From Candidatus Levyibacteriota bacterium (GTDB taxonomy: Bacteria; Patescibacteriota; Microgenomatia; Levybacterales; UBA12049): 64,000 nucleotides of DNA. The stretch covers positions 181,529-245,528 of the forward strand of contig CAVRKE010000001.1 of assembly GCA_963722305.1 (NCBI GenBank), in the 5' to 3' direction. The translations under genes were made by a program, and so were the position numbers. Position 1 is the stretch's first letter; every line of letters begins with the position of its first letter. The notes under the pieces are model-generated. The model was given only the letters and a program-made list of their open reading frames with translations, was not told the DNA's origin and made no database searches. This document shows, one piece after another, positions 22,435-45,802 of the stretch.

Positions 22435-22545
22435 GTGAGCTATATGGTTCCAGCCTGGAACCCCTGTTTAAAAGTCTCACAAAAATATACTTTAAATTAC
22501 TTGAACTAGGCTTAGTATATCATGAAAAGGAGGTAAAATGAACCC
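22435..22545 (+). repeat. 111-bp repeat, copy 1: promoter/RBS/start-codon cassette with the internal palindrome GGTTCCAG-N-CTGGAACC; an inverted copy lies at 45691-45802
   Basis: About 95% identical to the reverse complement of 45691-45802. Contains TTTAAA-16nt-TAGTAT, GGAGG and ATGAACCC, the start of the PLD-like gene. Confidence 0.85.
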
Positions 22546-22987
22546 TTTCCCCTCATCAAGGTTATATGACGAAAAGACGTTTTACCAAGCCTTCTTAAGA
22601 GACCTAGAGGGTTGTAGGAGTGAGGTAATCATCGAAAGCCCGTATATTACCAGTAAAAGAGCTGAAATGTTAATTCCTATATTCGACGACCTTTTAACTA
22701 AAGGTGTCAAAATCTATGTCATTACCAGGGATCCTCAAGAACATGAGGAAAATATGGAATATCAGTCCGAAGAGGCTATATCGTTATTTGAACATATGGG
22801 AATACAAGTCTTACTTTGTATTGGCAATCATCACCGAAAACTGGCCATATTAGACAGAAAAATACTTTGGGAAGGAAGTTTAAATATTCTTTCGCAGAAT
22901 CACAGTCGGGAAATAATGAGAAGGATTGAGAGCAAACAGTTGGCAATAGAGATGTTTGAGTTTTTGAGACTTTATAGATTTATATAG
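22538..22987 (+). CDS. phospholipase D (HKD) superfamily nuclease-like protein
   Basis: 149 aa with a single HxK(x)4D motif (NHHRKLAILD) plus the downstream GSxN (EGSLNI), typical of small Nuc-type PLD nucleases that act as dimers. Confidence 0.65.
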   Translation: MNPFPSSRLYDEKTFYQAFLRDLEGCRSEVIIESPYITSKRAEMLIPIFDDLLTKGVKIYVITRDPQEHEENMEYQSEEAISLFEHMGIQVLLCIGNHHRKLAILDRKILWEGSLNILSQNHSREIMRRIESKQLAIEMFEFLRLYRFI

Positions 22988-23003
22988 GAACTCAAGATGT
23001 ACG

Positions 23004-23477
23004 CTACCTGAGAGGTAGTTCATGTGGTAGTTTCAGTTCCTTAGCAATTACGCTAGCTTGTTTTTTTGTTTCCTCAATCCGTTGTTTGTTATCTGACGCA
23101 ATTGCTTTCCAGTAAGCAATTTTTATGTCAACATATCTTTGTCGAAGCTCTTCATAGTGTACCTTTTCAACGAGGTGTATTTTTTGCTTTTCAAGTAATT
23201 TTATTTGTTCATCTGCAGCATCTGGACCTATGCTGCGATTCTTGAGGTATGTTCGCATATCTTCAATTGATAATCCTGTCGCATTAAGGCAGGCGACAGA
23301 AATTACAAGGTTAACATCGTCTTCCGTGTATGTTCTGTGTTTGCTGCTTTCGTCACGATGGATTGGGTGAATTAATCCTATTGTTTCGTAATAACGAAGA
23401 GTGCTTTCAGGAAGCCCACTTAACTTGGCAGCTTCTCTAATTGTATATGTTTGTGAATTATTTCTTTGCATGTTCAC
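23004..23477 (-). CDS. MerR-family transcriptional regulator
   Basis: N-terminal MerR HTH (YTIREAAKLSGLPESTLRYYETIGLI) and a C-terminal coiled-coil dimerisation helix. Confidence 0.8.
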   Translation of the reverse strand: MNMQRNNSQTYTIREAAKLSGLPESTLRYYETIGLIHPIHRDESSKHRTYTEDDVNLVISVACLNATGLSIEDMRTYLKNRSIGPDAADEQIKLLEKQKIHLVEKVHYEELRQRYVDIKIAYWKAIASDNKQRIEETKKQASVIAKELKLPHELPLR

Positions 23478-23480
23478 TTA

Positions 23481-24137
23481 TTATACATCCGCTTTAAGTT
23501 TCTCAAATGCTTCGCTCCAATTATCAATTTGATTATCTCCGCTATACAGTTCGAAAGTTTTTCCTAGTGATTGTGGGTTTTCTAATGCGGCCACAATGAC
23601 TTTACCAAGTGTAACCCCGGATATATCATTTCTTCTGCCGGTATACTGATCACCCTGTTCTAAAGATATACCTTCCCCATTTTCTTCATCTCCAATAACC
23701 CATGCAGGACGGATAATAGTGTATAAGAATCCTGATTGCCGTATTAGTTCTTCTGCTTTAAGTTTTGCCTTGTTATAATCTGGCATTCTTTCAATTTCTG
23801 TAATTCCAATATGACCCATAAAAATAATATGAGCATTTCGCGGTGCTACCTTTAGGACATTTTTTACACCTTCAACGTAAACTTCATTAAGCTGTTCTGG
23901 ATCCCGGCTTGATTCGACGCTAATTACGATTCCCATTGCGTTTTGAAGTGCTGGTTTTAAAGATTCAATATTAGTAATACTTCCTATAACATACGAAATA
24001 TTACCTTCATCCGGTTGAGTATGTCTTGCCAATACTGTAACAAGTGCTCCTTTTTTAGCTGCCTGCCTAACTGAATTATGTCCAAGCCATCCGGTACCTC
24101 CTATGACGACGATTTTTTCGCCTTTAATAGATTTCAT
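23481..24137 (-). CDS. NAD(P)H-binding oxidoreductase (NmrA/atypical SDR-like)
   Basis: Rossmann motif IVVIGGTGWLGHN at the N-terminus. 218 aa. Confidence 0.6.
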   Translation of the reverse strand: MKSIKGEKIVVIGGTGWLGHNSVRQAAKKGALVTVLARHTQPDEGNISYVIGSITNIESLKPALQNAMGIVISVESSRDPEQLNEVYVEGVKNVLKVAPRNAHIIFMGHIGITEIERMPDYNKAKLKAEELIRQSGFLYTIIRPAWVIGDEENGEGISLEQGDQYTGRRNDISGVTLGKVIVAALENPQSLGKTFELYSGDNQIDNWSEAFEKLKADV

Positions 24138-24155
24138 ATTTATAAATGATTTGAG

Positions 24156-25001
24156 TTATTTTTTAGGATTAAGTTCTCCAAACCAATATGAAGCTGTAAC
24201 ACCGCCATCAATTAAAAAGTCGCTTCCTGTAATAAATCCTCCCTCAGGCCCCATGATAAAAGCTGCAAGACTAGCTACTTCTTCCGGAGTGCCACTTCGT
24301 TTTGCGGATGATAATTCAATCATTCTTCGGTATCCTTCTCCCCTTGGCCCTTTTAGTTCATCATTAGCAAGTGGCGTCATAATGATTCCCGGGCTAATAG
24401 TATTTACTCTGGCTCCACGCTTTCCCCAGAGGACCGCTTCTGCCATTACTCTAAGCGAGTTTCCTCGTTTTGAGATTTGATAAGCATGAAGTGAGTCAGT
24501 AATTTTATCTAACTGAAGAAAGGGAAGCGAAAGTAATTCTTCAATTGGGGTTGTTGCCAAGGCCTTATCCTCTTCTGGTGTTAGTGCGGGAAGACGATGT
24601 CCTGACATTGAAGAGATAACAACACCACTACCACCATTTGCTATAATTTTTCCAAATTCTTCAAGAACAACAGCGGTTCCATACAAATCAACATGTAATA
24701 TTGCTTCGGGTGATGCTTGAGACGGAGAAACTCCAGCAGCATGGATAACATGAGTAATTTCACCAATTTTTTTTGCGGTTTCAACAAGTTGGCGTACTGA
24801 GTCACGGGAAGAGACATCTACTGTTGCTGTGCTTACTTCAAATCCTGTATCACTAAATTCCTTTGCTGCCTTTTCAACACTTTCCTGACGTCTGCTAGCC
24901 AGTAATACATGTTTACCCGCACCAACTCTTCTTGCAATTGCTTGCCCAATTACTCCTGCTCCAACAACAACTACTACATTTTTTAAATCTGGATTTTTCA
25001 T
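24156..25001 (-). CDS. short-chain dehydrogenase/reductase (SDR) family oxidoreductase
   Basis: Glycine-rich cofactor site (VVVVGAGVIGQAIA) and a YxxxK catalytic motif (YQISKRG). Confidence 0.75.
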   Translation of the reverse strand: MKNPDLKNVVVVVGAGVIGQAIARRVGAGKHVLLASRRQESVEKAAKEFSDTGFEVSTATVDVSSRDSVRQLVETAKKIGEITHVIHAAGVSPSQASPEAILHVDLYGTAVVLEEFGKIIANGGSGVVISSMSGHRLPALTPEEDKALATTPIEELLSLPFLQLDKITDSLHAYQISKRGNSLRVMAEAVLWGKRGARVNTISPGIIMTPLANDELKGPRGEGYRRMIELSSAKRSGTPEEVASLAAFIMGPEGGFITGSDFLIDGGVTASYWFGELNPKK

Positions 25002-25005
25002 ACAC

Positions 25006-26037
25006 CTAATTTTTAATTTGTACTTTTATAGCTTTACGTTTGTCCATTGCCTCATATCCTTTTGCCAAATCAGAAAGCGGCAGCGTCAAATCAAATATTG
25101 GAGATGGGTCAAGTTTGCCTGAAAGAACATCTTTCAATAATTCTGGCGTATACGATGCGGTTGGTGCAATGCCGCCTCCGATTGTAACGTTTCTCCAAAA
25201 TATATCATTTACTTTTATATCAGGTACATCTTCAGGGATTCCTACGCATCCGATTCTTCCACCGGGTCTTACCATGCCCATTGCCATACTTCGAGCATCT
25301 TTTCCTCCCACACATTCCAAAACACAATCAGCACCAACCTCTGTTAGCTCTTTGACTTTGTCTATGCCTTCTTGTCCACGTAATGCGACAATATCTGTTG
25401 CGCCGAAGAGTTTTCCTACCTTTTGACGATCTTTGTGTCTACTCATCAAAATTATCTTTTTGGCGCCAAGTCTTTTACTCGCAAGTACTCCACAAAGACC
25501 AACCGCTCCATCTCCAACAACTGCAACAGTTTTTCCTTTTGAAACTCCTGCTGAAACAGCTGCATGATGACCGGTTCCCATCACATCAGATAACGCGAGA
25601 ATTGCCGGTATTAGTTTTTTATTTGTTTTTTTGGGAAAAGTGAAGAGATTAGCATCTGCAAAGGGAACCCTTAGTTTTTCTGCTTGGCAACCGGTTGTGC
25701 CTTTATTACCCCAATTACTTCCGTTGATACATTGACTGCTCATCCCTTTTTGACACAAAATGCATTTTCCGTCACACCATGAGAATGGACCAACAGCTAA
25801 ATCTCCAACCTTAACATTTTTAACGTCTTTTCCAACTTCAATAACCTCTCCCATGAACTCATGACCGATTCTCGTACCTGCTTCTCTTTTGAGAATGCCA
25901 CGATACCACCATAGATCAGACCCGCAAATGCAGGTATTAGTTATCTTAATAACCGCATCAGTTGAATTTTCAATTTTTGGGTCCGGTACCTCTTCTACTC
26001 GAATGTCATGGGGTCCGTAAAATATCCCTGCTTTCAT
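25006..26037 (-). CDS. zinc-dependent alcohol dehydrogenase (MDR superfamily)
   Basis: GHEFMGEVIEVG zinc-binding signature, a structural-Zn Cys cluster (CDGKCILCQKG...C) and the GxGxxG motif (VVGDGAVGL). Confidence 0.8.
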   Translation of the reverse strand: MKAGIFYGPHDIRVEEVPDPKIENSTDAVIKITNTCICGSDLWWYRGILKREAGTRIGHEFMGEVIEVGKDVKNVKVGDLAVGPFSWCDGKCILCQKGMSSQCINGSNWGNKGTTGCQAEKLRVPFADANLFTFPKKTNKKLIPAILALSDVMGTGHHAAVSAGVSKGKTVAVVGDGAVGLCGVLASKRLGAKKIILMSRHKDRQKVGKLFGATDIVALRGQEGIDKVKELTEVGADCVLECVGGKDARSMAMGMVRPGGRIGCVGIPEDVPDIKVNDIFWRNVTIGGGIAPTASYTPELLKDVLSGKLDPSPIFDLTLPLSDLAKGYEAMDKRKAIKVQIKN

Positions 26038-26423
26038 GATCGGTATACCTCCTCAGATACTGGTTCTAGCCAGGTAACATCTCCATAAGTAATTGCTAAG
26101 TGACACATTTTATTTTGCTCGTCGGGATGTGCTCCATGCCAGTGTTCTGTGTTAGCGGGAATATATACGACATCACCCGGATCAGCATTGACTATTTCTT
26201 GCCCCTTTAATTGAACTCGTCCTAGCCCCTCAAGAAAATAGAGTACTTGCTCTCCACTATGTTTATGCCATACCGTACGTGCGCCCTTTTCAAAAGTTAC
26301 CCGTCCTACCATTGATGATCCGGAATCTGCTTTAGTAACGTATTGAATATGAGTTGTACCGGTAAAATTTTCCAGCGCTCCTTGTTGTTCTGGAATATCT
26401 GTAGCGTGAATATGTTTTGTCAT
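26034..26423 (-). CDS. cupin-domain protein
   Basis: 129 aa with two cupin motifs (HKHSGEQVLYFLEG ... GDVVYIPANTEHWHGA). It overlaps the ADH gene by 4 nt, suggesting an operon. Confidence 0.65.
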   Translation of the reverse strand: MTKHIHATDIPEQQGALENFTGTTHIQYVTKADSGSSMVGRVTFEKGARTVWHKHSGEQVLYFLEGLGRVQLKGQEIVNADPGDVVYIPANTEHWHGAHPDEQNKMCHLAITYGDVTWLEPVSEEVYRS

Positions 26424-26496
26424 AAGGTTATACTAACAACTTAAAGTACTTTAAGTCAAGTACTCAATACACTCTAACTTTTTTATAATGTCTCAT

Positions 26497-26540
26497 TATT
26501 GGGTTCGAATCCCAAACGGCGTGAGGCTAGAAATATAGGA
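26497..26540 (+). repeat. tRNA-3'-end-like fragment (TTGGG-TTCGAAT-CCCAA-ACGGCGTG plus 18 nt); an inverted near-identical copy lies at 43171-43211
   Basis: About 39 of 41 nt identical to the reverse complement of 43171-43211. It contains a perfect T-arm but has no tRNA 5' half upstream. Confidence 0.8.
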
Positions 26541-26617
26541 TGCGATAGGATTTTAAGGCAATATCTGGAACTTGTTTTAGCTTCAATTCTGAGGATAATA
26601 CCAAGATGCGTAAAAAG

Positions 26618-26689
26618 TGAGCCGGGTGGGATTCGAACCCACGACCAAGAGCTTAAAAGGCTCCTGCTCTACCGCTGAGCTACCGGCCC
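26618..26689 (-). tRNA. tRNA-Lys (anticodon TTT)
   Basis: Hand-folded cloverleaf: acceptor GGGCCGG/CCGGCTC with one G-U pair, D-arm GCTC-AGCGGTA-GAGC, anticodon loop CTTTTAA, T-arm GTGGG-TTCGAAT-CCCAC, discriminator A. Confidence 0.8.
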
Positions 26690-26864
26690 CAAATGGGATA
26701 AACCTCACGGTTTTTCCCAACGATTTCCCTCTAGGGATAGCAAAATCGGCACTCACAATCCAACAATTTTGCTCGTCTTATTATAGCAACCCATGTTCTC
26801 CTTGACAAGCGAAAGGTAGCGGGTATAGACTGACGTTAGTTTAAAAAAAGAGGGGAGGTGAAAA

Positions 26865-27527
26865 ATGCCTAACATTGGAGTTACTCTAACTGCCTCCTTT
26901 AACAGCGCTTTCTACGCGGTTGTAAATTTTATCCCCAAATTCCTGGCCGGTGCAATTATCTTAATTGTTGGAATAATAATTGCTTCGATATTAAGACAAC
27001 TGATTGTCACTTTATTTAAAGTGTTAAAAGTTGAAAAATATCTGAAAAAATATGGCGTGCCGGAAGCAGGGGAAGCATTTACCTGGACAAACATTCTGGC
27101 GGAATTAGTGAGGTGGTTTGTCATTATTCTTTTCTTAATTCCGACAGCAGATGTTTGGGGTTTGCCGCAAATAATCGCTGTTTTAAATGAATTCCTGACC
27201 TATCTGCCAAATGTTTTTGTCGCTGCGGTGATTGCGATGGTCGGTTTTGCTTTTGCCAGGCTCGCCCATGACATAATTTTGGCGTCGGCAAAAGGAGTTG
27301 ATAATCAAACGGCCGGAACAATTGCAAACGTTACCCGCTGGGCAATCAGCGTTTTTGTCGTTTTGGCAGTTTTAAGCCAACTCGGAGTAGCAACAGACCT
27401 GATTAGAATCTTATTCACAGGATTAGTTGCGATGTTGGCGATTGCCGGAGGAATCGCGTTTGGCTTTGGCGGTCAAAAAACCGCTCAGGATATTGTTGAA
27501 GGAATCAGAAAAAGACTGACCAAATAA
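26865..27527 (+). CDS. membrane protein with repeated conserved TM-helix modules (MscS-N-terminal-like)
   Basis: 220 aa made of two similar halves, each with paired TM helices. A GGAGG ribosome-binding site lies upstream. Confidence 0.4.
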   Translation: MPNIGVTLTASFNSAFYAVVNFIPKFLAGAIILIVGIIIASILRQLIVTLFKVLKVEKYLKKYGVPEAGEAFTWTNILAELVRWFVIILFLIPTADVWGLPQIIAVLNEFLTYLPNVFVAAVIAMVGFAFARLAHDIILASAKGVDNQTAGTIANVTRWAISVFVVLAVLSQLGVATDLIRILFTGLVAMLAIAGGIAFGFGGQKTAQDIVEGIRKRLTK

Positions 27528-27581
27528 GGTTTGCCCTAAGAATGGGTTTAAGGTATAATATTGGTGCTGTTACTAACTAAT

Positions 27582-27655
27582 GGCGCCATCGTCTAGTGGT
27601 CTAGGACACAGGGTTTTCATCCCTGGAATCGTGGGTTCGACTCCCACTGGCGTCA
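27582..27655 (+). tRNA. tRNA-Glu (anticodon TTC)
   Basis: Hand-folded: acceptor GGCGCCA/TGGCGTC with one G-U pair, anticodon stem CAGGG/CCCTG with loop TTTTCAT, T-arm GTGGG-TTCGACT-CCCAC, discriminator A. Confidence 0.8.
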
Positions 27656-27705
27656 CATAATCCTATAGTTGAACTTCTCCCAATTTTCTGCTAGACTCTC
27701 CAATT

Positions 27706-28578
27706 ATGAATTACGAAAATACTCCCACACCTGCTTCCACATGTGAACATACTGAACGTAACTTCCGACATTTTACGCTTTATAAGGATAAACCGCTAGA
27801 TTCAATAAGACATCCTATTCCAGTATTGATTGTGCCCGGCTTTGCCAGCAGCGCAGAATCTTTCGCATTACTGGCTAAAACACTCAATGAGCACGGTTTT
27901 ACAACAATCCGGATTGAGTATGAATTTGGGAGACCCGGTGAACCTAAGAAATGGTTAGTGCTTCCTGATGTTGATAGATTAAAACGAGAGTCAATTATTG
28001 CCGCAATTCAGGCCGAGGGAAAATCTCTTAATGAAGACGGACCAAAACAAGTGATTACGCTTACCCATTCCAAGGGGGCCATGGATGTAGCTCAAGTAGC
28101 AGCTGATAATCCTGAGTTTTTCCAAGGTCAAATCATTTTTATGGATGCTCCCAGTAATTTACGCCCGAGACCTAGTCTAGTAGACGCAATAAGAATGTTA
28201 AGAAACAGTAACTGTCAAGACAAATTAGATAAAGCGAAATTAGCGGCCGAGCGCGGCGAAATAGTCGCCGAGCTGGTACGAGCAAACGATGCTTACGCGC
28301 ACCGGTACGGAGGAATACACCGTCTAATGGACATCGCATCTTCGGCTTGGGGATCAGTGTATGATATTCTTCCCAAACTAACTGAAAAGCGTATTGGGAC
28401 TATCGTTATTGCCCATACGGAAGATGCCTTCAATTCTGTAAAATCTTTTACAGTTGTGCAGAAGCGCGTGGGTGGAATCATTGCGTATCCGGGTATCCAT
28501 AGTGCAATAAAATTTTCACCTGAAGAATGCGAAAGAATTGCCCAATTATTGGAACAACACGAGCCAGTGGCGGCTTAA
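27706..28578 (+). CDS. alpha/beta-hydrolase (lipase-like) protein
   Basis: PVLIVPGFASS is typical of lipase class 2 or PGAP1-like alpha/beta hydrolases. The candidate nucleophile is in LTHSKGA. Confidence 0.45.
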   Translation: MNYENTPTPASTCEHTERNFRHFTLYKDKPLDSIRHPIPVLIVPGFASSAESFALLAKTLNEHGFTTIRIEYEFGRPGEPKKWLVLPDVDRLKRESIIAAIQAEGKSLNEDGPKQVITLTHSKGAMDVAQVAADNPEFFQGQIIFMDAPSNLRPRPSLVDAIRMLRNSNCQDKLDKAKLAAERGEIVAELVRANDAYAHRYGGIHRLMDIASSAWGSVYDILPKLTEKRIGTIVIAHTEDAFNSVKSFTVVQKRVGGIIAYPGIHSAIKFSPEECERIAQLLEQHEPVAA

Positions 28579-28623
28579 TTGATGGTAAAACGTTGGATAT
28601 TCCAGTATAATTAGAATTACCTT

Positions 28624-38508: not shown

Positions 38509-38727
38509 CTACTTTAAGGGGAGAAGAAGAAGCAGAGAAATCAAGGCAAAAATTACAGCCGTTGCAACCGTTGCCCACATCAGTAATTTCTCTAAACTTC
38601 TTTTGCTTCGGTAAAACTCGCCTGTTCCGCCAAAAGCACCGGACAATCCGCTTCCCTGCATTTGCAATAAAATAAGAGTGATAAGTATAACTGCGGCAAC
38701 AATTTCAAGAATATTGAGAATTATCAT
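38509..38727 (-). CDS. secG: preprotein translocase subunit SecG
   Basis: 72 aa with two TM helices flanking the Gly-rich loop LLQMQGSGLSGAFGG. Confidence 0.6.
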   Translation of the reverse strand: MIILNILEIVAAVILITLILLQMQGSGLSGAFGGTGEFYRSKRSLEKLLMWATVATAVIFALISLLLLLPLK

Positions 38728-38869
38728 TAAGCTTAATTATAACTTTTTTAGCACGGCTTTTGCAAGTTGAGCGAGCTTAAAGCGAAGCGAAATGGTTTGG
38801 CGAAGCCAAATCCATATTTAATAAAGTTTTTAGAAGAGTAAATAATAAGCCAAAGAGTTTCGAAATGTC

Positions 38870-39271
38870 TTATTTAATTAGCCAACCAAGTAGCGTTACA
38901 ATCAGCGACTGGAGAAGTGATACCAAGACAAAAGCAAAAAAAGTATTAAAGTAAATTTTGGGTACTACAAATCCGGCAAAAGAAATTCCGGAAAAAGTGA
39001 ATGAAGAAATCACTATCCCGACCACCAAAACAGTCAAAACGTAAAAAATTATGACATTAATCACAAAAGAAAATAAACCCAAAGTAATAATATTCAAAGG
39101 TAAAGAAAGAAGACTTAAAACCGGCTTTAGGATTTTTAGAAGCAGGGTCAAGACAAAACCGGCAACCAGCAATGTGATTAAACCACCATAAATCTTCATG
39201 CCGGAAATGAACTGTGAGATTAAAAATATCGAAAAAGCATTGAACAGGGTATTCCTTAAAAGTCCTTTCAC
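38870..39271 (-). CDS. DUF360 / phage-holin-4-like small membrane protein
   Basis: 133 aa with four predicted TM helices and a size and topology typical of the family. Low certainty. Confidence 0.35.
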   Translation of the reverse strand: MKGLLRNTLFNAFSIFLISQFISGMKIYGGLITLLVAGFVLTLLLKILKPVLSLLSLPLNIITLGLFSFVINVIIFYVLTVLVVGIVISSFTFSGISFAGFVVPKIYFNTFFAFVLVSLLQSLIVTLLGWLIK

Positions 39272-39357
39272 TCTAAATTCATGCTAGCAGATGAAGAAAA
39301 TAGTGTCAATTATTTGTGGGTTGCATTGAATCGCTTTTGAGCGTATATTATTGTCTT

Positions 39358-40464
39358 ATGAACGATATCAAATGCCCTTATTGTCACAAAACTTTTGAAT
39401 TGTCTGCGGCGTTAAAGCACGCATTTGAAGAAAAAGCGAGAAATGAAGAAAAAGCAAAAGCAAAAGAAGAAATTGAAAAAATTAGAATTCAAACGCAACA
39501 AGATTTAGAGAAAAAGCTACGTGTAGAATTCGAAAATAGAAATAAATCATCAAAGTTACTTCTCGAAGAGGCAGAAAAAAAGCGCAAAGCAGCCGAGGAA
39601 AAACTAATAGAAAGCGAAAAGGAAAGATTAGGAAGAGAAGAAAAAATAAAACTAGAAGCTGAAAAAAATGTATCTGATAAGGCTAGGTTGGAAAAGCTTG
39701 AGTATGAAAAGAAACTTAACGACATGCAAAAAGCTTTAGAGGTTGCTCAAAGCAAGGGTAAGCAAGGATCACAACAACTTCAAGGAGATGTGTTAGAAAA
39801 AGACCTCGAAGAACGATTGAGAACTGCGTTTCCAAATGATGATTTCAGGCCTGTTCCTACCGGAATAAGAGGAGGAGATATTATCCAAGAAGTAAAGAAT
39901 AAACACGGTAACAGCGCAGGCCTTATTCTTTGGGAGGCAAAAAGAACTAAAGCCTGGCAAAAAGATTGGTTAGCAAAACTTAAGGAAGATATGAGGAATA
40001 TAAATGCCAGTGATTGCATTCTAGTATCTGATGTCTTACCAACGGGCGTTAAAATTTACGATAGAATAGAAAATGCTTGGGTAACATCTTATGAATATGC
40101 AATAAAACTTGCCTCAGTTGTTCGTTTCGGTTTGTTGAACGTTGCAATCGCAAAATCATCTGCTTCCCACACGGATGAACAGCTAAAAGAACTTTATGAC
40201 GTCATCACCAGTGACTCTTTCAGGCAGATGTTTGAGGCAAGAGACGAGATCATTGATGCTTTAAAGCAAGAGCTCGATGCAGACAAAAGAAGCGCGGAAA
40301 AACGTTGGAAAAGACAGGGAGCATATATAGAGAAACTTGCAAGAAATAATAGTCAACTATATGGAGAGCTAGAAGCTCACATACCATCTCTTAAACCCCT
40401 GAAAGAACCTAACAATCTAAGAATCGAAAGCGGAAATGAAGAAGAACAGGAAACCCTCGTATAA
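39358..40464 (+). CDS. DUF2130-like protein: N-terminal zinc ribbon, long coiled coil and a C-terminal PD-(D/E)xK-like module
   Basis: CPYCHKTF opens a Zn ribbon. Residues 30-170 form an E/K-rich coiled coil. The C-terminus has GGDIIQEV...ILWEAKRTK, compatible with a D...ExK nuclease core (inference). The start is taken at MNDIKCPYC. Confidence 0.45.
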   Translation: MNDIKCPYCHKTFELSAALKHAFEEKARNEEKAKAKEEIEKIRIQTQQDLEKKLRVEFENRNKSSKLLLEEAEKKRKAAEEKLIESEKERLGREEKIKLEAEKNVSDKARLEKLEYEKKLNDMQKALEVAQSKGKQGSQQLQGDVLEKDLEERLRTAFPNDDFRPVPTGIRGGDIIQEVKNKHGNSAGLILWEAKRTKAWQKDWLAKLKEDMRNINASDCILVSDVLPTGVKIYDRIENAWVTSYEYAIKLASVVRFGLLNVAIAKSSASHTDEQLKELYDVITSDSFRQMFEARDEIIDALKQELDADKRSAEKRWKRQGAYIEKLARNNSQLYGELEAHIPSLKPLKEPNNLRIESGNEEEQETLV

Positions 40465-41065
40465 GTTTGAACGCGAACTTCTGGAAAGCGGTTATGATTT
40501 GGTTTTTGGTCTGGATGAAGTGGGCAGGGGCAGTTTTGCCGGACCGTTGGTGGCTTCGGCTGTTGCTTTTGAAAAGGAGTTTCGAACAACATGGTTTAAA
40601 GAATTGAATGACTCAAAACTTTTGACAGCCAAAAAGCGCGAGCATTTGTCAAAATTGATCTTGAACAACGCCAAATGCTTTACGGAAATTATTGAGGTTG
40701 AAACAATTAATAAAATCGGAGTAGGGGAGTGTAATCGGTTAATTTTTGAAAGACTGATAAAAAGGGTATTAAGTGAACATAAAGGGAATATTCACTTTTT
40801 AATTGACGGTAATCGAAAAAAAATCAGCAGAAAGAATTTACATTTTATTGTCAAAGGGGACCGAAAAATTATTTCCATTGCCGCTGCTTCAATCGTTGCC
40901 AAAGTTCATCGGGATAAATTGATGAGAAAGTTAGGTAAAGAATTTCCGGGCTACAATTTTGCCAAAAATAAGGGCTACGGCACCAAATTCCACCGTGAAG
41001 CAATCAAAAAACTGGGGTTATGCGAAATGCATAGGAAGTCGTTTAACCTCACAAAATTTACCTAA
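40436..41065 (+). CDS. rnhB: ribonuclease HII
   Basis: The DLVFGLDEVGRGSFAGPLVASAV catalytic N-terminus is present. 209 aa. Confidence 0.9.
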   Translation: MKKNRKPSYKFERELLESGYDLVFGLDEVGRGSFAGPLVASAVAFEKEFRTTWFKELNDSKLLTAKKREHLSKLILNNAKCFTEIIEVETINKIGVGECNRLIFERLIKRVLSEHKGNIHFLIDGNRKKISRKNLHFIVKGDRKIISIAAASIVAKVHRDKLMRKLGKEFPGYNFAKNKGYGTKFHREAIKKLGLCEMHRKSFNLTKFT

Positions 41066-41071
41066 AATTAA

Positions 41072-42670
41072 TTACCTAACGTTCGGACTTTCAAACTTTA
41101 CCCTAGGAATAACAAGATGTATTGTTTCTTTGGTTTTGGGATTTGTGTACTCAACTATTTCAAGTATCTTCTTTGCATCTTTTGCGTAGCCGTTAATGAG
41201 CGCGTCCATATCCCAAATTCTAATTAGAACCTTTCCACTGGATGGCATAGTATCCAAAGCCTGCTGTAATCCATATTGAAAATTATGAATTCCAAAATTT
41301 GGATTTTTCCATCCCTTGCCCTGAAGCTCCGTGTACTCAACCCCGATACCATATTTCTTTCTAAATTCATCAACTTTTGCAAATTTTCCACCAATGGGAG
41401 CAAACATTCCGAACGGGCTAAGTATTTCATCCCAGGTCTCCGGCCCCATTTGCCCAACTACGGGAGCATTCAACAAATCAGCTTTACCAACCAGTGTATT
41501 TACTGAAGCAATGTCCGTATAAATGTCCCAACCAAAAATAAGTTTCTTTGGATCTACGCCTTCGTTTATCAACTCTTCAAACAAATTCAAAACTGCATCA
41601 ACGTTAAGAGGACCGGCGGAATTTACTAATACCTTTGCGTTAGGGAATGTTTCCATTCCTTGGTATATCAATTCTTTCATATACTCCTTATCTATTGTCC
41701 AACCACGGTTCCCAAAGCTTTGGAACGGTTCGTTTTCTGGCTGGATAATTTTTATTGCGTTTAATTGTTCCTGAGTATAATTTTGCTTCAAATAACTAAA
41801 TAGTTTTTTAGTGTAATCGATTCCGGCTTTTGCTAATGCACTGTCTTTTGTAATAACACCGCCGTCAGGCGGAACATCAACGCTTTCCAGTACTTCATCC
41901 GGTTGAAAAGTCTCGGGATTATTCGGATTTTTATCTGGACCGTAAGCTAAAGCAATATTAATATTATTGGCAATCATGTAATCGAAAAACGGTTTGTAAT
42001 AACCGAAGTCTATATTTCCGTTTGCATCAACTGCATTTTGCCAACGAATTCCAATACGAATATCGTTGAAGTTATATTGCTCATGCATTTTCCGCAGCAT
42101 TACCATTGCTTTTTCCGGAGTTGCGAATATTTCCGGAATGAAGGTCGTACCGAAATCTACTCTAGAAAGAGCTTCCTGGTTTTCCTTTATGAAATCCTGC
42201 GTAAAAAGTTGCGATGTCCTCAGCTCCTGACTGTTCTTATCTAAGGCCGGTTTTACAATACCAAATGTATAAGTAAGCGCCAAGCCGACGCTGGCAAGTG
42301 TCGCAATAACTTTTTTCGTTTTTAACTTATTTTTAAGGAATTCGACTACTGTGTTTACTTTTGTTTCAAAAACGTTATTATCGATGCTTTTGTCTGCAAC
42401 ATATAGAACTTCTTCTCCCGCCTCCCAGGGTATCGGTTTTTCCCGTAGATCTTGTTGGGGATTAGATGGCAATTCCACAATAACAACTTCCGAAAAATCG
42501 CCTGCTATCCGCGCCAAAGCTGCTTCTCCAGTTTGGCCAAAAGAAACGTCCGAACTGTTACGCCAACGAAAAGGAAATATTCTTGCGGATGGCGTTTCCG
42601 AAACGTTTTTTCTCGGCCCAGCATACAGATGGTGTTGGTTAAACCGGGGTAGACGAATTATGTTTGGCAA
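41072..42670 (-). CDS. clan GH-A glycoside-hydrolase-like protein with an N-terminal membrane anchor (paralogue-like to the gene at 14351-15523)
   Basis: ENEP acid/base-like motif (IIQPENEPFQSFGNRGW) and an N-terminal hydrophobic anchor (KKVIATLASVGLALTYTF). The annotated N-terminus is probably over-extended. Confidence 0.4.
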   Translation of the reverse strand: MPNIIRLPRFNQHHLYAGPRKNVSETPSARIFPFRWRNSSDVSFGQTGEAALARIAGDFSEVVIVELPSNPQQDLREKPIPWEAGEEVLYVADKSIDNNVFETKVNTVVEFLKNKLKTKKVIATLASVGLALTYTFGIVKPALDKNSQELRTSQLFTQDFIKENQEALSRVDFGTTFIPEIFATPEKAMVMLRKMHEQYNFNDIRIGIRWQNAVDANGNIDFGYYKPFFDYMIANNINIALAYGPDKNPNNPETFQPDEVLESVDVPPDGGVITKDSALAKAGIDYTKKLFSYLKQNYTQEQLNAIKIIQPENEPFQSFGNRGWTIDKEYMKELIYQGMETFPNAKVLVNSAGPLNVDAVLNLFEELINEGVDPKKLIFGWDIYTDIASVNTLVGKADLLNAPVVGQMGPETWDEILSPFGMFAPIGGKFAKVDEFRKKYGIGVEYTELQGKGWKNPNFGIHNFQYGLQQALDTMPSSGKVLIRIWDMDALINGYAKDAKKILEIVEYTNPKTKETIHLVIPRVKFESPNVR

Positions 42671-42829
42671 TTCTCCTTTTCCATGTACCCAGGGGACTTG
42701 TCTTCCTGCCCGTCTTTCCGCTGCTACTAGATTATTCCTCCCCGCAAAACCAATAAGTTCTTATGTTTACACATAACGTTTTGGGCAAGATAATTCGATT
42801 GGGGCAACAAATATAACCATTGGCTTTTG

Positions 42830-42903
42830 CACGCCTGAGAGGACTCGAACCCCCAACCCCTTCGTCCGAAGCGAAGTGCTCTATCCAATTGAGCTACAGG
42901 CGC
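42830..42903 (-). tRNA. tRNA-Arg (anticodon TCG)
   Basis: Hand-folded: acceptor GCGCCTG/CAGGCGT, D-arm GCTC-AATTGGATA-GAGC, anticodon stem CTTCG/CGAAG with loop CTTCGGA, T-loop TTCGAGT. The T-stem uses G-U pairs. Confidence 0.7.
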
Positions 42904-43058
42904 ATGCTGTTAGTATACTAAATTTATAATTGTTTATAAAGTTCGGTAGAAGATTTTTAAAAAGTAGGATATAATATGGTATCAATGATTTTGCAATTGC
43001 AAAGCTTGTGTGCGGGCCCGCCCGACACGCAAGACGAGCTTGTGAAGTCGTTGCGGGC

Positions 43059-43131
43059 GGGCCGCTAGCTCAACTGGCAGAGCAATTCCCTCTTAAGGAA
43101 TAGGTTCAGGGTTCGACTCCCTGGCGGCTCA
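43059..43131 (+). tRNA. tRNA-Lys (anticodon CTT)
   Basis: Hand-folded: acceptor GGGCCGC/GCGGCTC, D-arm GCTC-AACTGGCA-GAGC, anticodon stem ATTCC/GGAAT with loop CTCTTAA, T-arm CAGGG-TTCGACT-CCCTG. Confidence 0.8.
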
Positions 43132-43170
43132 CTAATTTTACCATCGTTAATTTAGCCTCGAATTGTAGCA

Positions 43171-43211
43171 AATTTATCCTATATTTCTAGCCTCACGCCG
43201 TCTGGGATTCG
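43171..43211 (-). repeat. inverted copy of the tRNA-3'-end-like repeat found at 26497-26540
   Basis: The reverse complement reads GTTCGAATCCCAGACGGCGTGAGGCTAGAAATATAGGAT, about 39 of 41 identical to the copy at 26.5 kb. It lies 40 bp downstream of tRNA-Lys-CTT. Confidence 0.8.
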
Positions 43212-43274
43212 AACACACCAAAGATATGCCCTATAGTTTGACAATACTGCACATTATGTGATAAAATTTGTCAT

Positions 43275-44228
43275 ATGTTAAATCAATCACCTGAAGGATA
43301 TAGACAAGGAATTCCAATAGAAACACCTGGTTTTAGCGGAGATGCTTCTTCGCATACAGATGGTGTTGTAACCAGAATTAATCGTAGAGATTATATGCCT
43401 GGATTTTTAGAAACTACCCCAGTCACAATAATTCAACATAATCCTAATGGACAACTTGTTTTTAGCACAGAATATGATAAACGGCAGCTTACGCCCGAAG
43501 AAAATATGGCAATTGATGAACAACTTAAAGGTCCTGATACCATAGTTGAGATACTTCCTGACGGTGAAATTAGCATAGATCGCGGTTCAGCTCTTGAAAA
43601 TGGGTCACCAGCTTGGTTCACTCAGTGTAAAGAATTAGGTGTTAAAAGAGCCTTAAAAGAAGCAGCAGTTTTAGAAGCATTAACTGGATTCCAGAACGTA
43701 TTTTGGGGACCACATATTGGAAAAATAACTCCAATTATGGTCGTAGATCCTGATTCTGGTATTGAATATCAGACAGGCATCAGATTAAGTCATGATTTTC
43801 CTTGGACTACTACTGAAAAAAGAAAATTTAGAAGACCGAAAGCTATTCCGATTGTGGGCAAAAATGTTGTAGACATTACCTATAAAGCAACTGAAGCTAC
43901 TAAAGATTCAGGAGTTTTAGATACTGGTAACATATATTATCGTGAGAAATCAGCTGTAATAAGTATTCTTGCATTTCTTGATCCAAATGAACTTGAAGGT
44001 ATAGAAAATCCAACCACTTATAACCCTGATGATTTAAGATTTTTAAGTAAATTAGGAATTGGTTTAAATTTAGCTTTTGATCCGCAGCGTTTTAAACCGG
44101 ATAAAGATTTGACCTTAAAAATAGATGGAATTTTACAACGATTCGGAGATTTTACCGTATCACTGGGAACAAATGCTCCGCAACTAATCGAAAGGGGAAC
44201 AGAAAGAGCTAAAACATCTGTTAAGTAA
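43275..44228 (+). CDS. hypothetical protein
   Basis: 317-aa ORF with no recognisable motif, immediately upstream of the Fic gene. Confidence 0.3.
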   Translation: MLNQSPEGYRQGIPIETPGFSGDASSHTDGVVTRINRRDYMPGFLETTPVTIIQHNPNGQLVFSTEYDKRQLTPEENMAIDEQLKGPDTIVEILPDGEISIDRGSALENGSPAWFTQCKELGVKRALKEAAVLEALTGFQNVFWGPHIGKITPIMVVDPDSGIEYQTGIRLSHDFPWTTTEKRKFRRPKAIPIVGKNVVDITYKATEATKDSGVLDTGNIYYREKSAVISILAFLDPNELEGIENPTTYNPDDLRFLSKLGIGLNLAFDPQRFKPDKDLTLKIDGILQRFGDFTVSLGTNAPQLIERGTERAKTSVK

Positions 44229-44455
44229 TTAAAATTTTTGTAACTAACCTATAAAAAGCTTTTTAATTTAAGAAAATCAAACATTTCCAGAGCCACTGTT
44301 TCGTTTTCAATCCTTCTCATAATCTCCCGGCTTTTGTTTTGAGAGAAGATATTTAAACTTCCTTCCCAAAGGAATTGACTTTCTCATAGCTTTTTGCTAA
44401 ACTAGATTTAGACTAATTATTAGACCAATAGCTAGACTAATAATAGACTGATTTT

Positions 44456-45664
44456 ATGAACAAAATAGCTTCAAAACCATTCGCACACACTTTTTTATCA
44501 CAGTTTGTTCTTATACAAAAGCTGCTGCCTTTTTCTGATGATGAAATCAAAAATATAGATGCAGAACTGGCAGAGTATGAACAAGTATTCTTAAATCCGG
44601 ATATAGAGAAGAACTTGATTAGCAGAAATGAGCTTTTAGCTTCTTTTGCTATCTCTAAAGCGGAAAACTCAACCCTAACGCTTCAAGAGGCGCAAGATGT
44701 TTATAACTTACTGCTTACAAATGAAGAGTACACTTTTATTTCGGATAAACTTAAAAAAAAAGAAAAATTAACGCAGAAAGATTATGACAAGCTGGAGTTT
44801 TATAATATCGCCAAAACTTTTCGTAGTCTTAATGAAACACCGTTTAGTATCGATAATATCACGGCTGACGACATACGCAGACTCCACCAAAGCTTAAGCC
44901 TTGGATTAGATGTGTTTGAAAAGTATTTACTTGATTTTACTGTTTATAAATCCGGTAAGTTTCGCGATAATGATACGATTAGAGTTGGCAGCTATATACC
45001 GGCTCCTTTTGAAGCGATAGAGAAAGGAGTTGAAGAGCTTCTTTTGTATCTTAAAACCAACAAAACCATTACCGGAGTGGCTGTTTTTCATACTGGTCTT
45101 TATGCTCTTCATCCATTTAACAATGGGAATAAGCGAGTTTGTCGAATCTTAGAACACATTTTCTTTCGGGATCTTGGTTTAAATCAGAAAAATCTTTACA
45201 GTACTTCATATTATTACCATAAGCAAAAACAAAGGTATTATAAATACTTACTCTATTCCCTTGAGCGAAGAAATCTAAACCATTTTGTTTCCTTTGTCCA
45301 AGAAGCGCTTGTATTGTCTATGATTGGAGTTTTAAAATTAAGTCTTTCAGCAAAACGAAGTGAATTTTTAAGTAATCAAACAAGCGATGAGCAAATACGT
45401 CTTGTTTTAAAATCTTTGATTAAAAGACGTGAATTACAGTTTAAAAACCTGTTTGTAGCAGTCAGGGGTAAAATGGCCAGACAAACTTTTGTAAATCAGT
45501 TACAAAAAGCCACAGATGAAAAGATTATTCTAAAACGTGAAGCAGGACGAACTACCTATTATTGTCTTAATTTTAATACGCCCGAGGAAGAAGCACTGAA
45601 TAGATGGCTTACTTTTGCCAAGAAGAAACTATCCTACATACCCGATGAGATAAAATTGTTATAG
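44456..45664 (+). CDS. Fic/Doc-family protein with a variant active-site motif
   Basis: HPFNNGNKRVCR matches the Fic core HPFx(D/E)GNGRxxR except for N at the D/E position and K at the second G. The C-terminus looks like a winged helix. Confidence 0.7.
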   Translation: MNKIASKPFAHTFLSQFVLIQKLLPFSDDEIKNIDAELAEYEQVFLNPDIEKNLISRNELLASFAISKAENSTLTLQEAQDVYNLLLTNEEYTFISDKLKKKEKLTQKDYDKLEFYNIAKTFRSLNETPFSIDNITADDIRRLHQSLSLGLDVFEKYLLDFTVYKSGKFRDNDTIRVGSYIPAPFEAIEKGVEELLLYLKTNKTITGVAVFHTGLYALHPFNNGNKRVCRILEHIFFRDLGLNQKNLYSTSYYYHKQKQRYYKYLLYSLERRNLNHFVSFVQEALVLSMIGVLKLSLSAKRSEFLSNQTSDEQIRLVLKSLIKRRELQFKNLFVAVRGKMARQTFVNQLQKATDEKIILKREAGRTTYYCLNFNTPEEEALNRWLTFAKKKLSYIPDEIKLL

Positions 45665-45690
45665 TATATATCTCATATTCGTATTTTTTA

Positions 45691-45802
45691 GGGTTCATTT
45701 TGCCTCCTTTTCATGATATACTAAGCCTAGTTCAAGTAATTTAAGATACGTTTTTGTGAGACTTTCAAATAGGGGTTCCAGGCTGGAACCATATAGCTCA
45801 CT
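45691..45802 (-). repeat. 111-bp repeat, copy 2 (inverted copy of 22435-22545), oriented to fire antisense into the 3' end of the Fic gene
   Basis: The reverse complement is about 95% identical to copy 1 and includes the palindrome GGTTCCAGNCTGGAACC, the promoter hexamers, GGAGG and ATGAACCC. The downstream minus-strand ORF is only 13 codons. Confidence 0.85.

Follow-up and report, generated by a model that had tools for sequence, protein, structure and literature searches.

A 113-nt inverted repeat pair as the probable conserved front of two small nuclease gene modules

Inverted repeats that flank a long stretch of chromosome raise the question of whether the intervening segment can be flipped, and, when the repeat looks regulatory, whether it is a promoter that travels on its own. 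Both possibilities were raised by the initial annotation for a pair of blocks 23 kb apart in the 64 kb stretch of DNA analysed here (hereafter the window). The pair itself was borne out by blastn (E 6e-45): its arms share 113 nt at 94% identity with 7 mismatches, and their longest perfect run is 42 nt (22492-22533). We report that the repeat belongs to a small nuclease gene module, present twice, of which it forms the conserved front end. The arms are very probably the front ends of modules that lie beside oppositely oriented tRNA-Lys genes, the second of them gutted by a Fic gene.

Two nuclease modules, one intact and one broken

Three further inverted matches are nested inside the arm pair in collinear order (Table 1), a nesting that had been missed at first reading. 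At the protein level, the minus strand at 44383-44252 matches residues 106-149 of the PLD nuclease with 64% identity (tblastn, E 8e-15). The block is present in two copies in the window, both at PLD genes, and its 5' edge was set against 12 related loci (designated L plus a number where individually named) with mutually unrelated upstream flanks. The degenerate tRNA-like fragment outside this edge was not called as a tRNA by ARAGORN and has no Rfam match; the flank that carries it is also present in L011.

Table 1. Coordinates of the repeat arms, the genes behind them and the associated tRNA-linked features in the window
Feature	Position	Strand	Remarks
tRNA-like T-arm fragment GGGTTCGACTCCC	22335..22375	-	~60 nt outside leader edge; degenerate
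Short upstream ORF, 39 codons + stop (MGFFSELYGSSLEPLFKSLTKIYFKLLELGLVYHEKEVK, then stop)	22422..22541	+	TGA overlaps PLD ATG (ATGA)
Repeat arm 1, conserved leader of PLD module 1	22434..22546	+	sharp 5' edge GTGAGC to PLD codon 3
Perfect palindrome GGTTCCAG-C-CTGGAACC	22446..22462		inside upstream ORF
Shine-Dalgarno GGAGG of PLD gene	22529..22533	+	4 nt before ATG 22538
PLD1, intact 149-aa single-HKD nuclease	22538..22987	+	HxK-x4-D-x6-GSxN at residues 99-116
Region 1 cargo	23004..26423	-	MerR regulator, NAD(P)-binding protein, short-chain dehydrogenase, Zn-dependent alcohol dehydrogenase, cupin
Right-end element, copy 1, GGGTTCGAATCCCAAACGGCGTGAGGCTAGAAATATAGGAT	26500..26541	+	75 nt from tRNA-Lys(ttt) 3' end
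tRNA-Lys(ttt)	26617..26689	-	convergent with PLD1; last 7 nt GGCTCAC
tRNA-Lys(ctt), anchor of region 2	43059..43132	+	ends in GGCTCAC
Right-end element, copy 2	43176..43217	-	95% identical to copy 1; 44 nt from tRNA-Lys(ctt) 3' end
Region 2 cargo, 317-aa protein	43275..44228	+	no family match
3' stump of PLD2, 44 codons + stop (ESQFLWEGSLNIFSQNKSREIMRRIENETVALEMFDFLKLKSFL, then stop)	44249..44383	-	in-frame stop precedes
Fic-domain gene, 402 aa, SoFic-like	44456..45664	+	Pfam Fic E 1e-14; PADLOC SoFic E 3e-26
Repeat arm 2, leader + first three codons of broken PLD2	45690..45802	-	
Nested inverted match	22865-22964 with 44371-44273		81% nt
Nested inverted match	26500-26541 with 43217-43176		95%
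Nested inverted match	tRNA-Lys(ttt) 26617-26689 with tRNA-Lys(ctt) 43059-43132	- with +	

In the intact copy, PLD1 matches Pfam PLDc_2 (E 2e-11, 44.3 bits against a cut-off of 27), and its residues 99-116 read HRKLAILDRKILWEGSLN, with H99, K101, D106, G113, S114 and N116 invariant in 40 homologs. The AlphaFold model (pLDDT 84.9) recovered Zucchini (E 1e-9), NucT (E 1e-8) and Nuc (1byr, TM 0.71/0.69) in Foldseek, with BfiI also among the best PDB matches. PLD1 matches the DrmC and MkoC profiles of PADLOC and no NCBIfam family. By Pfam, HKD motif and modelled fold, it is assigned to the PLD superfamily as a predicted single-HKD nuclease of the Nuc/NucT/Zucchini type, for which a further criterion is metal-independent nuclease activity via a phosphohistidine intermediate.

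Copy 2 is a relic, in which PLD codons 4 to ~105, including the catalytic H, K and D, have been replaced by ~1.3 kb with Fic, the latter sitting on the opposite strand between the two PLD2 stumps. The 3' stump is in frame and its stop position equals that of PLD1; of the HKD motif it has kept only WEGSLN. The upstream-ORF frame of arm 2 is open but lacks ATG, GTG and TTG, and a TAA lies immediately before it. It had been stated that copy 2 faces the 3' end of Fic in antisense orientation and has no intact gene behind it, and this is correct; its ATG, described as opening 13 codons, in fact opens 29 (ATG 45698, -), antisense to the Fic end.

Identity comparisons indicate that the two window copies are different alleles and not a recent duplication. 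The copy 2 leader is 98% identical to the leader of L003 as against 94% to copy 1, and the PLD2 stump shares 92% nucleotide identity with the L003 allele as against 81% with PLD1. A recent inverted duplication in this genome, perhaps kept alike by gene conversion until one copy decayed, would fit the fact that the nested matches take in two tRNA-Lys genes and a 42-nt element 95% identical between copies. Such an origin is nonetheless highly improbable: copy 2 is nearer to the foreign allele than to its partner in both leader and 3' end, the two tRNA-Lys genes are different isoacceptors with only 74% identity, and the cargo genes of the two regions are unrelated.

The leader block and its coupling to the nuclease gene

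Approximately 100 of the 113 nt of the block belong to a short upstream ORF that is ATGA-coupled to PLD, and the block also carries the ribosome-binding site and ATG of the nuclease gene. At ~140 of the 159 PLD loci examined (Microgenomates, CPR bacteria), an upstream frame runs 4 or 8 nt into PLD before it ends. Codon-position entropy is highest at position 3, lower at position 1 and lowest at position 2 in the upstream frame only, and this holds in three leader types. Across the family, the substitution pattern of this frame is that of translated sequence. Its product has few database protein matches, all of them hypotheticals of 38-75 aa, and the peptide has no Pfam match and no recognisable DNA-binding domain or family. 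The putative start at ATG 22422 has no clear Shine-Dalgarno sequence, start codons and Shine-Dalgarno sequences are inconsistent between family members, and a 1-nt deletion in the window's clade has put the GTG at the leader edge out of frame. Because of these inconsistent start signals and the frame of the edge GTG, translation of the copy 1 peptide is not certain.

Several elements that the initial annotation read into the block are indeed there. GGAGG, which is invariant in 14 aligned leaders, and ATGAACCC with its ATG at 22538 in copy 1, were found in both copies, and the block does supply the PLD/HKD nuclease gene with its Shine-Dalgarno sequence and ATG. The description of the block as a discrete unit, better conserved than the gene behind it, also held. 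In the closest loci the leader is 85-98% identical upstream of PLD; its 5' edge is sharp, the flanks are unrelated, and homology of the module runs as far as the PLD stop codon and ends there. Leader identity stands at 92-94% where that of PLD third codon positions is only 55-60%, and leader conservation exceeds that of the PLD coding sequence also at synonymous sites of the small ORF. The palindrome GGTTCCAGCCTGGAACC is likewise present, its sites within the 64 kb window being limited to 22446-22462 and 45774-45790 (shuffled mean 0.07).

These features could be taken to favour a portable promoter/operator cassette, that is, a mobile block whose operator palindrome and sigma-70 promoter drive any downstream gene: the block is discrete and sharp-edged, it is conserved above PLD even at small-ORF synonymous sites, and the palindrome is confined in the window to the two copies. 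We nevertheless consider the cassette unlikely. Family-wide, the block evolves as coding sequence. The palindrome did not stand as an operator, since only the closest clade has it in perfect form and other members carry degenerate versions; its 5' arm is not conserved past that clade, while the 3' arm, TGGAACC, corresponds to family-wide W-N-P / L-E-P codons. The proposed TTTAAA-16-TAGTAT promoter agrees with 8 of 12 sigma-70 consensus positions, falls below the scan threshold and lies inside the upstream ORF, and scanning of the + strand from 22200 to 23100 returned no promoter-like site. As for portability, among 168 related loci the block occurs solely directly upstream of PLD, with the single exception of broken copy 2.

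A second reading of the block as a control element is a structured RNA leader, a riboswitch or attenuator in which a GUGAG...CUCAC stem and an enclosed hairpin would regulate PLD translation. All 14 aligned leaders are able to form the stem, and the only changes in it are from G-C to G-U. We regard such a leader as extremely improbable, given that the consensus fold reaches only -3.4 kcal/mol with a covariation term of 0.04 and compensatory change in a single pair, that copy 1 folds no better than shuffled sequence (z = -0.35), and that the stem is missing from the other leader types. Rfam searches with both copies gave nothing at E < 1, the best match being a sub-threshold eukaryotic snoRNA model (E 1.7).

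A MITE or REP-type repeat with terminal inverted repeats and a target-site duplication around a short non-coding unit does not describe the block well, the unit being a coding leader continuous with its gene. As to dispersed copies, there are two in the 64 kb window and more may lie elsewhere in the genome; across the 168 related loci, PLD was the only gene that the block preceded.

The preferred reading, in which the block is the front end of a gene module, can be put in terms of two genes: an upstream ORF of ~35-46 codons, whose stop overlaps the start of a Nuc/NucT/Zucchini-like single-HKD PLD gene. In intact copy 1, judging from this anatomy, the upstream frame most likely hands ribosomes to the nuclease start. 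The small peptide may partner the nuclease as an inhibitor/immunity factor or as a co-factor.

Variable regions at tRNA genes and the question of inversion

Both variable regions start at a tRNA-Lys 3' end and have a module at the far end, in the order leader, PLD, cargo, conserved 42-nt element and tRNA. The cargo position of region 1 is filled by different genes in relatives, and in L007, L009, L013, L085 and L091 the right-end element follows PLD in the same orientation. The order PLD(+), differing cargo, tRNA-Lys(ttt)(-) and tRNA-Glu(+) is repeated in L035, L053 and L085, and variable cargo at a tRNA 3' end was observed in both window regions as well as in these three loci and L091. Some regions are only ~1.2-1.3 kb long (L007, L162). 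More generally, tRNA genes are opposite in strand to PLD in 46 of 49 cases upstream and 16 of 21 downstream, a convergent downstream tRNA being present within the fetched flanks of a minority of loci only. A tRNA lies no more than 400 nt upstream of PLD at 16 of 130 loci, always on the opposite strand; in 11 of the 16 its 5' end is 83-130 nt from the PLD start, i.e., ~50 nt or less from the leader edge, and in L079, L091, L093 and L097 the 5' end is 1-4 nt from that edge.

Occupied and empty sites can be compared at related loci, not at the window's own sites: tRNA-His and tRNA-Arg are 5-18 nt apart in L093 and L145 and have a leader, PLD, 2.4 kb and a right-end element between them in L091, and tRNA-Phe and tRNA-Val are adjacent in L148 and separated in L117. 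The terminal GGCTCAC of tRNA-Lys(ttt) is the reverse complement of the consensus leader start GTGAGCC, to which the window's leader start, GTGAGCT, corresponds at 6 of 7 positions. In six of seven pairs, the leader start agrees with the reverse complement of the convergent tRNA 3' end at 6-8 of 8 nt, compared with a mean of 3.5 in mismatched controls; the match is short (6-8 nt), the pairs number seven, and tRNA 3' ends share composition. The likeness of the leader edge to the tRNA 3' end, together with the modules between adjacent tRNA genes in relatives, suggests possible integration at tRNA genes. No tyrosine integrase domain and only one resolvase fragment were found in 26 cargo proteins, drawn from region 2 of the window and from 11 related loci, and the region 1 cargo contains no integrase domain; the proposed integration is therefore without an enzyme to explain it. 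We infer that the regions arose by site-specific insertion at tRNA 3' ends, in which case the tRNA 3' terminus would recur, as a distal copy, in the first 6-8 nt of the leader. A DNA-level role at this junction, besides the coding role, may explain why the leader is so unusually well conserved.

This arrangement bears directly on the 23 kb spacing. The leaders form an inverted pair because the tRNA-Lys genes are divergently transcribed and the regions extend outward from them, and both PLD genes read back toward their tRNAs. The inversion-like symmetry is very probably a by-product of the arrangement and not a switch.

The opposing claim was that the arms serve programmed or frequent recombination, flipping the 23 kb segment and moving PLD and Fic to the other flank. 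There is material that speaks for it, namely the length and identity of the arms with their 42-nt perfect run, and the gene order around PLD modules, which differs between relatives with breakpoints at the leader edge; in L085 the PLD-tRNA-Lys-tRNA-Glu block is inverted relative to Obg and UvrA when compared with the window. An invertible segment is, however, very unlikely. The 22 ORFs scanned between the arms, which take in all but a few short or overlapping ones of at least 80 aa, showed no recombinase or invertase domain, nor did their neighbours, and the sole nearby transposase, an IS30-like DDE gene at 18062-19087, is outside the segment. The interior is housekeeping in character, with GlmS, UvrA, UvrC, RNase HII and four tRNA genes. 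The arms differ at seven positions and derive from different alleles, so they are not being homogenised, and a flip would keep PLD behind an equivalent leader, so that no on/off effect is apparent. No alternative junction was found; the sample has one other assembly, which breaks off inside the repeat and has no bearing on orientation. Occasional RecA-mediated inversion across the 42-bp perfect run may occur.

Relation to known systems

Single-HKD nucleases such as Nuc of pKM101 (1byr), NucT of H. pylori (6ehi), Zucchini/MitoPLD (4ggj), the catalytic domain of BfiI (2c1l) and DrmC of DISARM resemble PLD1 in having ~150 aa and one HxK-x4-D-x6-GSxN motif, and their structures align with the PLD1 model at TM 0.61-0.72, with sequence identity of only 14-27%. 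Unlike them, the PLD family described here has an overlapping short ORF in front, and it resides in chromosomal tRNA-linked variable regions of CPR bacteria, not on a plasmid, beside a restriction partner or within a DISARM operon.

Invertible promoter switches (fimS, the hin and cin systems, Bacteroides invertons) likewise have inverted repeats flanking a segment and a promoter-like block that faces outward or inward, but their segments span 0.2-5 kb as against 23 kb of housekeeping genes here, their repeats are short recombinase sites as against 113 nt of gene sequence, and the present locus has no adjacent invertase and a flip without expression consequence. Type II toxin-antitoxin and nuclease-immunity pairs share the two small genes with stop/start overlap (4 or 8 nt at most of the 159 loci), as well as the patchy distribution, the several copies per genome and the location in variable regions near Fic and RelB/ParE genes; on the other hand, the upstream product here is only ~35-46 aa, without a recognisable DNA-binding domain, and its start signals are inconsistent. 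Compared with tRNA 3'-end islands (P4-type integrase islands and many ICEs), the regions examined here yielded no integrase, their repeated core is only 6-8 nt, and the conserved genes, the small ORF and PLD, are placed at the end away from the tRNA. They share with those islands variable cargo at a tRNA 3' end, conservation of both ends, and occupied and empty sites that can be compared in tRNA arrays; the short sequence at the distal boundary may likewise be a copy of the tRNA 3' terminus.

The repeat as the head of a small-ORF/PLD module

The inverted pair proposed in the initial annotation is present in the window, with arms of 113 nt that are 94% complementary in a repeat search of the window and align by blastn with 93.9% identity over 115 columns (E 6e-45). 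The copies differ at seven positions, and their longest perfect run spans 42 nt (22492-22533). The palindrome GGTTCCAGCCTGGAACC was likewise found in both copies and nowhere else in the 64 kb (chance expectation 0.07 matches); both copies also carry GGAGG and ATGAACCC. A perfect palindrome is confined to the closest clade; other members keep just its 3' arm, TGGAACC, as W-N-P or L-E-P codons. The TTTAAA-16-TAGTAT sequence read as a promoter matches 8 of 12 consensus positions, the minimum in our scan being 9, and no plus-strand site was returned in 22200-23100. In copy 2, the ATG at 45698 on the minus strand, said to open 13 codons, actually begins a frame of 29. The block forms the conserved and largely coding head of a module made of a short upstream frame (the small ORF) and a PLD nuclease gene; it occurs twice, once intact (PLD1, behind copy 1) and once gutted by a Fic gene (PLD2, behind copy 2). 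The reading as a portable promoter does not hold up. Of the initial interpretation, the statement that the block holds the nuclease translation start stands; a free regulatory cassette or a demonstrated inversion substrate it is not.

The PLD family comprises 4732 database proteins at E <= 1e-3 and belongs to Microgenomates, a branch of Patescibacteria, with members in MAGs of Levyi-, Davies-, Gottesman-, Roizman- and Woesebacteria; we retrieved 80 metagenomic and 80 genomic loci for comparison. Viral contigs yielded no PLD relatives and 0 matches to the leader pattern, and a full-text literature search found nothing on the PLD/small-ORF module in Patescibacteria. Directly 3' of PLD, a conserved ORF encoding about 65 aa (..FLKQTDPxNATRExAIxML..) occurs in L008, L011, L026, L117, L132 and L162 (L-numbers denote related loci from other contigs or genomes); it may be a third module gene, and is absent from the window.

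In the closest relatives, about 105 nt 5' of PLD, the leader, are 85-98% identical to the window block. The 5' edge of the leader is sharp at GTGAGC, beyond which the sequence differs unrelatedly from locus to locus, and the PLD stop codon marks the other limit of homology. More distant PLD subfamilies possess their own leaders of 80-135 nt with equally sharp edges. Frame +2 of the window leader reads MGFFSELYGSSLEPLFKSLTKIYFKLLELGLVYHEKEVK up to a TGA that overlaps the PLD start as ATGA, and an upstream frame terminating 4 or 8 nt into PLD occurs in about 140 of 159 loci. Its peptides are conserved; examples are ..WN.IF.SL...Y.KLK.LGFTYYNGKV.II..EED, ..YFEPLLAHF..LMEAYQ..EEE and ..IW.EVRTYLASIDP.EK... 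Across three leader types, variability is ordered position 3 > position 1 > position 2 in the small-ORF frame only: the leader is coding. The peptide has no Pfam family, and database matches number 5 proteins (38-75 aa) in one database and 2 in another, which means that gene callers almost never predict it. A lone 1208-aa match lacked an aligned stretch and was discounted. The small ORF was also considered as the C-terminus of a larger protein and rejected, as upstream frames close a few codons from the edge and the matches are so short.

Coding does not exhaust the constraint on the leader. The small ORF lacks a uniform start. In some members a GTG lies in frame precisely at the edge; in the window's clade a 1-nt deletion shifts this GTG out of the frame, and the putative start is instead an ATG in the flank, a few codons from the edge (22422 in copy 1; likewise L003, L005 and L006). 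The first 25-30 nt are read in two frames among members, so that conservation must act at the nucleotide level. Within this clade the leader is 92-94% identical, against 55-60% for third codon positions of PLD (first and second, 90-92%), which indicates constraint beyond coding, synonymous sites of the small ORF included; the synonymous sites of PLD are saturated, the leader being far better conserved. An RNA structure for the leader finds no support: its consensus fold reached -3.4 kcal/mol with essentially no covariation, and copy 1 folds like shuffled sequence (z = -0.35). Rfam, run on the entire window at gathering threshold and on the two copies with E values allowed up to 10, returned only four tRNAs, the best match for the leader being a sub-threshold eukaryotic snoRNA model that is not credible (E 1.7). 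The leader DNA pattern had 0 matches in 185,579 species-representative genomes, a set outside which the source genome falls, and inspection by eye gave no convincing -35/-10 of a minus-strand promoter for abutting tRNA genes. Nearby, the window carries a perfect sigma-70 consensus (TTGACA-17-TATAAT) upstream of an 83-aa ORF without family match, and, farther away, about eight copies of a 21-nt tandem repeat, CTCTAGATGAAAAAGTGGGGG, inside an ORF.

Coordinates of features in the window and in related loci
Feature	Location	Strand	Remarks
Leader copy 1	window 22434-22546	+	heads PLD1
Leader copy 2	window 45690-45802	-	heads PLD2
PLD1	window 22538-22987		149 aa, single-HKD; Pfam PLDc_2 E 2e-11
PLD 3' end, both copies	window 22865-22964 vs 44371-44273	inverted	81% nt
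PLD residues 106-149, counterpart	window 44383-44252	-	64% protein identity, E 8e-15
42-nt right-end element, both copies	window 26500-26541 vs 43217-43176	inverted	95%
tRNA-Lys(ttt)	window 26617-26689	-	mirrored by tRNA-Lys(ctt)
tRNA-Lys(ctt)	window 43059-43132	+
Fic gene	window 44456-45664	opposite to PLD2	Pfam Fic E 1e-14; PADLOC SoFic E 3e-26
Repeated motifs upstream of Fic	window 44389-44455		67 nt
IS30-like transposase	window 18062-19087	+	HTH_38 + rve
Degenerate T-arm	window 22335-22375	-	GGGTTCGACTCCC
Sigma-70 consensus	window 22263-22291	-
83-aa ORF	window 22256-22005
21-nt tandem repeat	window 61719-61886		within ORF 61625-62020
Right-end element	L007 1155-1239
Right-end element	L009 1660-1712
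Right-end element	L013 2236-2274
Right-end element	L085 7798-7914
Right-end element	L091 8800-8885
Leader-like stretch without PLD	L007 1244-1320
Fic, RelB/ParE pair and module	L087 3886-6450
Occupied tRNA-His/tRNA-Arg site	L091 5806-8959
Empty tRNA-His/tRNA-Arg site	L093 4127-4291
Empty tRNA-His/tRNA-Arg site	L145 2001-2156
~65-aa downstream ORF	L117 7067-7270
~65-aa downstream ORF	L132 734-943
~65-aa downstream ORF	L162 6472-6660

Mirrored variable regions and the question of inversion

The repeat pair is only the outermost layer of a mirror arrangement, inside which three more inverted matches are nested with their order kept. Region 1 runs from the leader through PLD1, a MerR gene with four oxidoreductase-type genes and the 42-nt element to tRNA-Lys(ttt), which lies on the opposite strand; region 2, its mirror, starts at tRNA-Lys(ctt) and continues with the 42-nt element, an unknown gene of 317 aa, the stump of PLD2 and Fic, ending with leader 2. 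Each variable region is anchored on a tRNA-Lys gene and has its module at the opposite, outer end. Since the two tRNA-Lys genes are transcribed away from each other, the leaders form an inverted pair. The order PLD(+), different cargo, tRNA-Lys(ttt)(-), tRNA-Glu(+) is shared by L035, L053 and L085.

Behind copy 2, a PLD tail of 44 in-frame codons persists, with its stop at the same position as in PLD1; copy 2 is therefore not an orphan cassette, the head and tail of a second PLD gene being still in place. About 300 nt between them, the codons for the catalytic H, K and D included, have given way to about 1300 nt containing the opposite-strand Fic gene. A TAA just outside the edge and the lack of a start codon for the small ORF are consistent with a dead copy. 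Copy 2 offers a natural case in which one defence-type gene, Fic, takes the place of another, PLD, in a fixed frame. Immediately upstream of Fic, repeated TAGTCTA / GGTCTAA motifs may constitute an operator for this gene. In another genome (L087), the 2 kb upstream of a small-ORF/PLD module contain a Fic gene and a RelB/ParE pair, so the association of Fic with PLD modules is not confined to the window.

Judged by sequence identity, the two copies represent different alleles. Compared with the L003 module of another genome, leader 2 is 98% identical and the PLD2 stump 92%; compared with copy 1, the values are 94% and 81%, which argues against recent internal duplication and homogenisation by gene conversion.

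The 23-kb segment between the arms had been proposed as an inversion switch, a reading that does not hold up. Scanning 22 ORFs between the arms revealed no recombinase; the interior encodes GlmS, UvrA, UvrC, a transglutaminase-like protein, a solute-binding protein, DUF2130, RNase HII and four tRNAs. A flip would leave PLD1 attached to the same kind of sequence, since the two arms are equivalent leaders. In favour of rearrangement, gene order near the modules varies among relatives with breakpoints at the leader edge, which marks the neighbourhood as rearrangement-prone on evolutionary time scales, and rare RecA-mediated inversion between the arms may occur. The sole other assembly of the same sample is uninformative on orientation, its unitigs ending within the 42-nt perfect run owing to the effect of the repeat on the de Bruijn graph. 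Other assemblies provided no alternative junctions: the PLD and Fic proteins match only short same-sample unitigs that end inside the repeat, and the 80-aa flank ORF has no record there. Among 80 contigs from the metagenome search, 24 stop 68-245 nt upstream of a PLD start, which fits a leader shared by strains with differing flanks. An IS30-like transposase lies outside the 23-kb segment, and the stretch holding it (about 17.6-22.4 kb) is missing between Obg and the PLD module in L082 and L094.

Linkage to tRNA genes and a possible role in mobility

Across the loci, tRNA genes near PLD lie predominantly on the opposite strand (46 of 49 upstream, 16 of 21 downstream). A tRNA gene is found less than 400 nt upstream of PLD in 16 of 130 loci, opposite every time; in 11 of these its 5' end and the PLD start are 83-130 nt apart, which places it no more than about 50 nt from the leader edge, and in L079, L091, L093 and L097 only 1-4 nt from that edge. 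In the conserved array His-Arg(tct)-Gly-Pro-Leu, the His/Arg gap measures 5-18 nt in L093 and L145; L091 has a leader, PLD, cargo of 2.4 kb and the right-end element placed exactly between these two genes, its leader edge 4 nt from the tRNA-His 5' end. The Phe/Val gap is similarly 25 nt in L148, and PLD plus 4 kb intervene in L117.

Leader starts also look like the 3' end of the convergent tRNA in reverse complement: GTGAGC(C/T) corresponds to GGCTCAC of tRNA-Lys, GTGGACAA to TTGTCCAC of tRNA-Val, GTACCCC to ..GGTAC of tRNA-Glu, and GTGAGCC to GGGTCAC of tRNA-Arg. Agreement is 6-8 of 8 nt in six of seven pairs (mean of mismatched controls, 3.5). Together, the linkage data look like site-specific insertion at tRNA 3' ends, a picture we partly infer. 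A tyrosine integrase domain was, however, absent from all 26 cargo proteins, among which a single resolvase fragment was seen. A search for plus-strand tRNA fragments fused to the leader edge gave only five T-loop-like motifs, none beside the edge. About 60 nt outside the edge, the window has a degenerate tRNA-like T-arm that neither ARAGORN nor Rfam calls, in a flank shared with L011.

The right-end element, GTTCGAATCC..GGCGTGAGGCTAGAAATATAGGAT, recurs 3' of PLD in constant orientation in seven regions, near their tRNA end. It combines a hairpin resembling a tRNA T-arm with GGCGTGAGGCTAGAAATATAGGAT, and a second motif, GAGGCTAAA, occupies the spacer adjoining the tRNA. Its GAGGCTA motif is also present just outside the leaders of L007, L013, L017, L022 and L150. 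The right-end element may serve as an element end or as a binding site for a recombinase. At the position of the window's tRNA-Lys(ctt), with an almost identical spacer, L007 carries GTGAGCC and a leader-like coding stretch that no PLD follows, with a further, complete leader 550 nt beyond, a layout that points to modules repeated in tandem or decayed at a single site.

One speculative reading, which we regard as improbable, is that the small-ORF/PLD pair is the mobility machinery, not the cargo, of a previously undescribed kind of CPR mobile element. The single-HKD nuclease would cut and join DNA at tRNA gene 3' ends via a covalent phosphohistidine intermediate, assisted by the small peptide, and the leader edge and the GAGGCTA-containing 42-nt element would be the two ends. 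Such an element would account for the small ORF, PLD and these ends being the only conserved parts of the regions, for the missing integrase, for leader types starting with the termini of different tRNAs, and for leader conservation at the nucleotide level.

If the relation to tRNA ends is true, it provides a handle on gene-content turnover in small, integrase-poor CPR genomes. Further work is warranted on the module, on the excess conservation of its leader and on its consistent place bordering integrase-free variable regions within tRNA arrays, as well as on the widespread small ORF ahead of PLD in Microgenomates, largely unannotated in view of those few matches against the thousands for PLD. 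The HxK-x4-D-x6-GSxN motif of the nuclease is invariant among 40 homologs, and its alignment-based model (pLDDT 85), used in place of a poor single-sequence AlphaFold model (pLDDT 58, discarded), best matches Zucchini, NucT, Nuc (1byr, TM 0.71/0.69) and BfiI.
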